DNA of 32,000 bases, taken from positions 89,641 to 121,640 of the forward strand of contig JRFF01000053.1 of NCBI GenBank assembly GCA_000753575.1. Direction: 5' to 3'. The stretch comes from Candidatus Izimoplasma sp. HR2 (GTDB lineage Bacteria > Bacillota_I > Bacilli_A > Izemoplasmatales > Izemoplasmataceae). This document shows positions 25,462 through 25,535 of the stretch, in pieces (positions within the stretch are counted from its first letter, which is position 1; the number at the start of each line of letters is the position of its first letter). The position numbers were made by a program, and so were the translations under genes. The notes below the pieces were generated by a model. The model made no database searches. It was not told the origin of the DNA and was given only the letters and a program-made list of their open reading frames with translations.

Positions 25462-25535
25462 TGGCAAAGGTCAGAAGAGTCGAACTCCTATCTTGAGGTT
25501 TGAAAGCTCCTGTCTTACCGTTAGACGAGACCAAT
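25462..25535 (-). tRNA. candidate UGA-decoding tRNA(UCA) (Trp-like / opal suppressor)
   Basis: attggtc tc gtct aacggta agac a ggagc ttTCAaa cctca agat aggag ttcgact cttct gaccttt g cca. D and T arms are perfect. A1-U72 and G73 match the CCA isoacceptor. The acceptor has two U.U mismatches and the anticodon stem has only 3 bp. Confidence 0.6.

Follow-up and report, generated by a model that had tools for sequence, protein, structure and literature searches.

A phage-borne candidate tRNA-Trp(UCA) at the head of a tRNA island in a TGA-recoded phage genome binned with Candidatus Izimoplasma sp. HR2

Introduction

A DNA stretch of 32,000 nucleotides from the assembly of Candidatus Izimoplasma sp. 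HR2, referred to below as the window, carries a tRNA gene whose UCA anticodon would read UGA. The locus raises two questions: whether the gene encodes a functional tRNA that inserts tryptophan at UGA, and whether such a tRNA would enforce a recoding in a host that terminates at UGA or simply match a host that uses code 4. The earlier note on this DNA, made from the sequence alone, had proposed a phage-encoded UGA-reading tRNA and had left the second question open. The DNA was obtained from a marine methane-seep enrichment, whereas recoded phages have been described mostly from gut metagenomes, with the recoding tied to late genes; in the phage analyzed here the replication genes already depend on UGA being read as tryptophan, and the UCA tRNA lies where a promoter-rich early block without TGA gives way to the recoded genes. 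We put the probability that the gene encodes a functional tRNA-Trp(UCA), decoding UGA as tryptophan, at about 0.7.

Results

The window is part of a phage genome

The window has a G+C content of 29.6% and all of its genes are on the minus strand. Its DNA is identical to metagenome contigs found in ENA, Logan and NCBI, and its GyrA is 100% identical to a protein of Candidatus Izimaplasma bacterium HR2 encoded on a 128,148-bp contig. In two ENA assemblies the contigs are of identical length, 127,887 bp, but rotated differently, as would fit a genome that is complete and either circular or terminally redundant. The genes include SPbeta-type YorF, YorH and Pol III alpha, the last of which finds its best named hits among polymerases of Bacillus SPbeta-like prophages (47-49% identity, on 127-143 kb contigs), as well as DnaB, RecJ, PIF1, ligase, ThyA, DHFR, ClpP and homing endonucleases. 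The SPbeta-type genes, the homing endonucleases, an island of 25 tRNAs and an endolysin gene in a sister phage identify the window as part of a phage whose genome measures about 128 kb and whose replication module is SPbeta-like. The early block encodes an Rnl2-type RNA ligase and a metallophosphatase (L002:49-984 and 1671-2354).

The NCBI annotation of HR2 lists ThyA as a 117-aa fragment and RNaseH_like as an 88-aa fragment (KFZ25967.1, KFZ25979.1), from which it follows that the metagenome-assembled genome (MAG) was annotated in code 11 and that the recoding went unnoticed; under this code ThyA, RNaseH_like, ligase, DnaB and Pol III alpha all appear as fragments. The HR2 MAG was described as having 58 tRNAs, against 27-38 in the compared reference genomes (PMC7761423). 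This count was probably inflated by the 25 tRNAs of the phage, and the gene content of the MAG is inflated by the phage too.

TGA is read as tryptophan in the phage

Translation in code 4 fused many split ORFs into full-length proteins with end-to-end Pfam matches. The 49.6 kb assembled, out of the genome of about 128 kb, contain 42 in-frame TGAs, found among others in ThyA, RNase HI, PIF1 helicase, DnaB, ligase, Pol III alpha and RecJ. The genes of the window which need UGA to be read as tryptophan are the following:

113..16576, minus strand: replication and nucleotide-metabolism genes needing UGA=Trp (code-4 annotation, alignments)
113..1519, minus strand: DnaB, recoded
5065..5928, minus strand: ThyA, recoded
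7386..8531, minus strand: ligase, recoded
11180..11725, minus strand: RNaseH_like, recoded
15628..16359, minus strand: Dam methyltransferase, recoded

Two of the three TGAs of ThyA align exactly to tryptophans of the Bacillus subtilis enzyme and the third lies one residue from a tryptophan; the TGA of RNase HI aligns to a conserved tryptophan of Escherichia coli RNase HI, a TGA of the PIF1 helicase also aligns to a tryptophan, and a full-length match to the Pfam RNaseH_like domain runs across a TGA. In the other direction, TGAs in gyrB of the related contig L001 and in gyrA of contig L011 align to TGG in the window phage. All 68 predicted genes in the 49.6 kb terminate with TAA or TAG; two ambiguous TGAs lie 4-9 codons before a TAA, in genes 9508..9921 and 6469..7374. 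Since its TGAs align to conserved Trp in homologues of solved structure, or such TGAs and TGG correspond between related phages, and no confident gene ends in TGA, the phage has reassigned TGA from stop to tryptophan, as the earlier note had supposed.

Fold and identity elements of the UCA tRNA

The tRNA gene in question, the island to which it belongs and the second Trp-family gene of this island are located as follows:

25462..25535, minus strand: tRNA with anticodon UCA, Trp type (ARAGORN; Rfam, 36.6 bits; ortholog at L001:13092-13165)
12510..25535, minus strand: tRNA island, 25 tRNA genes, all with encoded CCA (ARAGORN and Rfam)
18014..18087, minus strand: tRNA-Trp(CCA) with A1-U72, G73 and CCA (Rfam, 46.3 bits)

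ARAGORN, one of the programs named in the earlier note, detected 24 tRNA genes on the minus strand of the window, including a 74-nt tRNA with the anticodon tca at 25462..25535. The gene scored 36.6 bits against the Rfam tRNA model RF00005 (gathering score 29; E=2.5e-4 over the whole window), covering model positions 1-71 of 71 in the same register as that of ARAGORN. The 74-nt cloverleaf with a UCA anticodon that had been read by eye is hence borne out by two programs in one register, and, of the outcomes named beforehand as fatal to it, neither rejection by a covariance model nor a different anticodon register was obtained. The score is nevertheless the lowest among the 21 window tRNAs found by Rfam.

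The acceptor stem consists of A1-U72, U2.U71, U3.U70, G4-C69, G5-C68, U6-A67 and C7-G66. The D stem has four Watson-Crick pairs out of four, closing a D loop AACGGUA with GG, and the T stem has five pairs, one of them G.U, with the T loop UUCGACU; the D arm had rightly been called perfect, while the same description was slightly generous for the T arm. The anticodon arm reads GGAGC/UUUCAAA/CCUCA, with three Watson-Crick pairs between the mismatches G27.A43 and C31.C39. Both weak points already listed in the earlier note, the two U.U mismatches of the acceptor and the three-pair anticodon stem, are therefore present in the sequence. The computed energy of the cloverleaf was -9.3 kcal/mol against -13.6 kcal/mol for the minimum free energy structure, that is 4.3 kcal/mol above it (z-score +0.78); the cloverleaf is likewise not the thermodynamic minimum for the other two Trp-family tRNAs, the L001 ortholog and tRNA-Trp(CCA).

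The 3' end carries G73 and an encoded CCA, and in the anticodon loop UUUCAAA C35 and A36 are kept while U34 replaces C34, so that G73, A1-U72 and C35/A36, identity elements of bacterial tRNA-Trp, are all present. Among the 25 island tRNAs the combination of A1-U72 and G73 occurs only in the two Trp-family genes; the L001 ortholog has it as well.

The tRNA-Trp(CCA) gene was missed by ARAGORN and found by Rfam. It had been said to share the identity-type features of the UCA tRNA, which is correct for A1-U72, G73 and the encoded CCA; G18G19 is missing from it. Its D loop is AAUGUUA and its T loop UUAAAUU, and the usual G19-C56 tertiary pair appears on this ground to be replaced by U19-A56. Neither tRNA-Met nor tRNA-Cys was found in the island of the window. 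A tRNA-Ile(UAU) gene (20627..20701, minus strand) adjoins that of tRNA-Ile(GAU) and is kept in the relative at L001:17090-17164. Two protein genes were also recorded here: a DUF2828/DUF7788 vWA-domain protein is encoded inside the island (22580..24097, minus strand) and a PTH2 peptidyl-tRNA hydrolase at its end (12085..12471, minus strand). Homologues of the former with 35-49% identity lie beside tRNA clusters in several unrelated large phages as well as in prophage-like regions of Bacillus, Clostridium and Enterococcus (L012-L019).

An ortholog with compensatory changes lies at the same place in a related phage

L001 is a JGI contig which uses in-frame TGA and whose GyrA is 75% identical to that of the window. 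At L001:13092-13165 it has a 74-nt tRNA with A1-U72, G73 and CCA (Rfam, 50.5 bits), preceded by gyrA, a terminator-like hairpin, three tandem consensus promoters and a structured leader. Where the window tRNA has U2.U71 and U3.U70, G-C pairs are found in the ortholog. The three Trp-family sequences (UCA of the window, UCA of L001 and CCA of the window) were aligned without gaps. In this three-sequence set, compensatory changes on both sides were seen in 8 of the 21 pairs, and 87% of the cells are paired; none of 500 shuffles reached the observed covariation values, and registers slid along the alignment gave 32-54% paired. An ortholog at the same place with compensatory changes in its stems indicates that the UCA gene is under selection. 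The 3' halves of the L001 UCA tRNA and the window CCA tRNA are nearly identical, which makes the UCA and CCA genes paralogs, and A24 is present in all three sequences. This conservation, the A1-U72 and G73 elements and the alignment of TGAs to tryptophan support the earlier proposal that the phage encodes a UGA-reading tRNA with Trp identity.

For the L001 ortholog, ARAGORN and Infernal preferred a shifted register with the anticodon UUC, at a posterior probability of about 0.5. The glutamate identity implied by this register was rejected: it requires the deletion of nucleotide 26, the window tRNA is unable to form it, it does not agree with A1-U72, and L001 has a canonical tRNA-Glu elsewhere.

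Searches for further relatives gave little. A nucleotide search of 18 kb against GenBank phages gave no match, and scans of IMG/VR based on GyrA or on the exact tRNA pattern gave nothing. Metagenome contigs scanned with a degenerate form of the tRNA pattern gave four ordinary tRNA-Glu(UUC) genes and a single odd tRNA, none of them an ortholog; the odd tRNA, L006:713-786, is on a contig of 25.6% GC, where a tRNA-Ser(UGA) is followed by a tRNA-like gene with the 8-nt loop CUUUCAAA. A DUF2828-based scan of IMG/VR yielded only distant large phages (L012-L017), none with a UCA tRNA, and the same scan of GTDB genomes yielded two Enterococcus loci only. The contigs L028-L030, which hold closer DUF2828 homologues, and L011 end before the tRNA position. 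One of the unrelated large IMG/VR phages carries a tRNA(CUA) amber suppressor (L013:7506-7579).

Promoters, leader and flanking hairpins

The elements surrounding the UCA tRNA and the promoters inside the island are listed below:

25804..25832, minus strand: promoter P1, TTGACA, 17-nt spacer, TG-extended TATAAT, 12 of 12 consensus positions; kept upstream of the L001 ortholog
25723..25751, minus strand: promoter P2, TTGACT, 17-nt spacer, TG-extended TATAAT, 11 of 12 consensus positions (promoter scan, L001 alignment)
25536..25722, minus strand: leader, about 180 nt long, from P2 to the UCA tRNA (alignment with L001:12866-13091)
25559..25627, minus strand: long hairpin in the leader, conserved with L001, five compensatory pairs
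25870..25891, minus strand: hairpin over the gyrA stop codon, AGCACUC-N8-GGGUGCU (read from the sequence)
21044..21072, 19786..19814, 17882..17910 and 15136..15164, minus strand: promoters inside the tRNA island (consensus pattern)

The twin promoters of the earlier note are both present, each with TG upstream of the -10 element. The window has seven matches to the pattern TTGAC-N15-TGNTATAAT, every one of them on the minus strand, whereas 100 shuffles gave none. The UCA tRNA had been described as the promoter-proximal gene of the whole island; with four further promoters inside the island, the first transcription unit starts with it, but it is not the only promoter-proximal gene.

Two blocks of the leader are kept in L001, AAAGGCACAUYCAGCAAAAU and CGUGCCUAGAAAAAUACU..UGGAA, and the leader (25536..25722) gave no Rfam match. 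The stem of the long hairpin differs in sequence between the two phages while its apical loop, CGUGCCUAGAAAAAUACU, is invariant; the hairpin may be a processing or regulatory element. The AGGCAC of the 5' block is complementary to GUGCCU. As for the upstream border, the hairpin over the gyrA stop codon (25870..25891) was not reported by the terminator scan, and L001 has after gyrA a clearer terminator-like hairpin with a U run. We infer that the window hairpin is terminator-like and would separate the upstream operon from the tRNA unit.

The short anticodon stem is confined to the Trp-family tRNAs

The anticodon stems of the 25 window tRNAs were surveyed: 19 have 5 bp, four lack one end pair, and only the two Trp-family tRNAs have both 27-43 and 31-39 unpaired. 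In tRNA-Trp(CCA) the mispaired positions are C27.A43 and A31.C39, which also leaves a stem of 3 bp. Among the L001 tRNAs both end pairs are missing only in the UCA ortholog, where G27.A43 and C31.C39 are identical to those of the window tRNA and the three pairs between them co-vary. The doubly unpinned stem is thus conserved in this phage clade and confined to its Trp-family tRNAs.

A tRNA-Trp(CCA) whose anticodon stem is shortened enhances readthrough at UGA in E. coli, and a G27.A43 mismatch raises the efficiency of a suppressor derived from E. coli tRNA-Thr2 (PMC13092985). The 3-bp stems of the phage offer a simple, testable link to this recent work on UGA decoding.

TGA is unevenly distributed around the tRNA

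The 16.3 kb upstream of the tRNA contain 24 genes with 28 TGG and, outside the gene of a GIY-YIG homing endonuclease, 0 TGA; this gene, with 2 TGA, is the sole upstream gene with in-frame TGA. The 33 kb downstream of the tRNA contain 40 TGA against 71 TGG, and 17 of the 28 downstream genes of at least 100 aa carry TGA. The contrast between the two sides has a Fisher p of 3e-5 (1.3e-3 with the endonuclease included). Consensus promoters number seven in 10 kb of the upstream block, and others are clustered before the UCA tRNA and within the island. This promoter clustering makes the TGA-free upstream block look like an early region transcribed by the host polymerase. The part of it inside the window is:

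25890..31869, minus strand: downstream end of the promoter-rich early block, with gyrB, gyrA and small genes; TGA-free except for the GIY-YIG gene

The GIY-YIG gene (29244..29999, minus strand) splits gyrB (window 28555..31492), the N-terminal part of which lies at 30137..31492 and the C-terminal part at 28555..29040; gyrB of L001 is intact. The replication block has a single consensus extended -10 promoter (4521..4549, minus strand), just upstream of gene 4120..4443.

A strict rule by which all genes before the tRNA would be TGA-free was considered and rejected as a conserved feature, gyrB of L001 and gyrA of L011 each having a TGA. In the sister phage L026, TGA is thinly spread over replication and late genes; its RNase H gene (L026:9464-9958) has 6 TGA and 1 TGG, and its DnaB, RecJ and PIF1 genes have none. 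The TGA load is very uneven between genes and between related phages.

TGA makes up 27% of the Trp codons, whereas the A-ending codons reach 87-92% in the Lys, Glu, Gln, Leu and Arg pairs. The nucleotide following the codon also differs: T follows 1 of 32 in-frame TGAs, 19 of 85 TGGs and 20 of 51 true stops (p=0.013 and p=0.005), and 21% of all codons; the single TGA-T is an ambiguous TGA located nine codons before a TAA. U at position +4 is described as the strong termination context in bacteria (PMC5289835). Taken together, the under-use of TGA, the TGA-free early block and the avoidance of T at +4 suggest that the host still terminates at UGA, a conclusion tempered by the TGAs of gyrB or gyrA in the relatives and by the thin spread of TGA in L026. 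Of the two possibilities left open in the earlier note, enforcement of a recoding and accommodation to a table-4 host, the codon evidence internal to the phage would favour the former.

Discussion

Proposed function of the UCA tRNA

On infection, the sigma-A RNA polymerase of the host would fire the two tandem consensus promoters, and the structured leader of about 180 nt would be transcribed, followed by the UCA tRNA as the first gene of the 25-tRNA island. The transcript would be processed, with CCA already encoded, and the tRNA would be charged by the tryptophanyl-tRNA synthetase (TrpRS) of the host through G73, A1-U72 and C35A36; no TrpRS gene was found in the approximately 50 kb of the phage genome covered, and the other 78 kb may encode a TrpRS, a release factor or a further UCA tRNA. 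The charged tRNA would pair cognately with UGA, leading to readthrough of the replication genes and of some later genes with in-frame TGA, and the earliest promoter-rich genes, free of TGA, would be translatable before the tRNA accumulates. In a host which most likely keeps UGA as a stop, the UCA tRNA would have to compete with release factor 2 (RF2).

We also considered, as a tentative and rather doubtful extension, that the 3-bp stems are a product of selection and not of decay and give both Trp tRNAs, the cognate UCA and the near-cognate CCA one, an edge over the RF2 of the host, which together with the TGA-free early block would amount to an early-to-middle switch of the code. If this were true, the short-anticodon-stem route of UGA reassignment would extend to phages and to cognate suppressors, and the phage would switch the code of the cell at the early-to-middle transition and not only for late genes.

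Host and alternative explanations

The only link between the phage and Izimaplasma is binning. The phage has an SLT-domain gene and its sister phage an Amidase_3 endolysin gene, and HR1 and HR2 were reportedly described as wall-less in the original Izimaplasma paper; these peptidoglycan-targeting genes weaken the assignment of Izimaplasma as host, and a walled, low-GC Firmicute is more likely. In the Izemoplasma papers examined, other than the original one, no explicit statement on the genetic code was found. That the host uses the standard code seems probable to us, if a little less so than the function of the tRNA itself. Were the host instead a Mollicute-like organism with code 4, the UCA tRNA would merely be part of a supplement of 25 tRNAs fitted to the codon usage of the host, and there would be neither a conflict of codes nor a switch. 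Such a host would agree with the presence of TGA in essential replication genes, with the TGAs that relatives have upstream of the tRNA in gyrB and gyrA, with the nearly complete tRNA set of the phage, with the tRNA-Trp UCA/CCA pair of Mollicutes and with the binning of the contig with a Mollicute relative. It accords poorly with a TGA share of 27% where mutation bias predicts about 90%, with an early block of 0 TGA and 28 TGG, and with in-frame TGAs that avoid a +4 T which true stops favour; moreover, code 11 was used in annotating the Izimaplasma HR2 MAG, and the Amidase_3 endolysin and the SLT-domain gene point to a walled host. Walled Firmicutes with code 4 are not known. We consider a code-4 host unlikely.

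It could also be argued that the UCA gene is decaying and that UGA is read by the short-stem tRNA-Trp(CCA) through C:A wobble, the readthrough by a tRNA of this kind in E. coli being a precedent (PMC13092985), or by a tRNA encoded in the remaining 78 kb. The U2.U71 and U3.U70 in place of the G-C pairs of the ortholog, the lowest Rfam score in the island and the poor predicted fold would be explained in this way. Tandem U.U pairs are, however, among the less destabilizing mismatches, the D arm, T arm, T loop, G73, CCA, anticodon loop and the first place behind tandem promoters have all been kept, the middle three pairs of the anticodon stem co-vary with the ortholog, and at least 40 in-frame TGAs in 33 kb need efficient decoding; decay is quite improbable on this evidence. 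As for the insertion of selenocysteine, of glycine (code 25) or of another residue, its one favourable sign is the 'SeC' label of ARAGORN, which the program gives to every tca anticodon when run under the bacterial code, as was done here. The acceptor and T stems are of 7 and 5 bp and the variable loop of 4 nt, whereas a tRNA-Sec has 8/5 or 9/4 bp and a long variable arm; the tRNA-Sec model RF01852 gave no match at the locus even at E<=1, and TGA positions align to Trp, TGG or Tyr and not to Cys, Sec or Gly. A selenocysteine identity was rejected on the anatomy and the Rfam result, and the chance of any of these residues being inserted is negligible. A functional tRNA-Trp(UCA) is the reading that we retain.

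Comparison with known systems

The pair of tRNA-Trp genes of Mollicutes such as Mycoplasma and Spiroplasma resembles that of the phage in consisting of evident UCA and CCA paralogs, in a low-GC genome where UGA means tryptophan. In Mollicutes, which lack RF2 and write most of their tryptophans as TGA, the pair is cellular; here the two genes are phage-borne and 7.4 kb apart, and TGA is the minority codon. The opal suppressors derived from E. coli tRNA-Trp (UCA; Hirsh G24A) likewise decode UGA with the body of a Trp tRNA charged by TrpRS, as predicted for the phage tRNA, and the A24 of all three phage tRNAs recalls the second of these; those suppressors are laboratory mutants of a cellular gene, whereas the phage has a natural, conserved gene.

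The resemblance to the tRNA-Trp of Blastocrithidia (CCA, 4-bp stem unpinned at 27-43, 7-nt loop) is of a general kind only: the phage tRNA in question has the anticodon UCA, and in either Trp tRNA of the phage the stem is unpinned at both ends. A similar relation holds to the tRNAs of a 2026 survey of short stems, which set bottom-unpinned tRNAs aside and in which phages are unmentioned (PMC13092985): positions 27 and 43, at the top of the stem, do not pair in the two Trp-family tRNAs of the phage either, but these are also unpaired at 31-39, leaving a 3-bp stem, and the feature occurs here in the cognate UCA tRNA as well.

The closest parallel is with the code-4 phages of standard-code Firmicutes, 35% of which have a detectable TGA suppressor tRNA and which include the Agate (about 127 kb) and Jade clades and some crAss-like phages (bioRxiv 10.1101/2021.08.26.457843). 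Compared by its features, the window phage is likewise a large low-GC phage (127.9 kb, against about 127 kb for Agate), with in-frame TGA read as tryptophan, a phage-borne UCA tRNA, no phage TrpRS in the 50 kb covered and a probable standard-code Firmicute host. In IMG/VR and among GenBank phages, no relatives were found by sequence. The replication genes of Agate and crAss-like phages keep the standard code, and the recoding is concentrated in structural and lysis genes (bioRxiv 10.1101/2021.08.26.457843), whereas in the window phage the recoding is heavy in the replication genes and it is the promoter-rich early block that lacks TGA; the source also differs, being a methane-seep enrichment and not the gut. 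The UCA tRNA is thus probably a suppressor tRNA of a code-4 phage, a strategy already known, and the 3-bp anticodon stem of both Trp-family tRNAs is the new detail.
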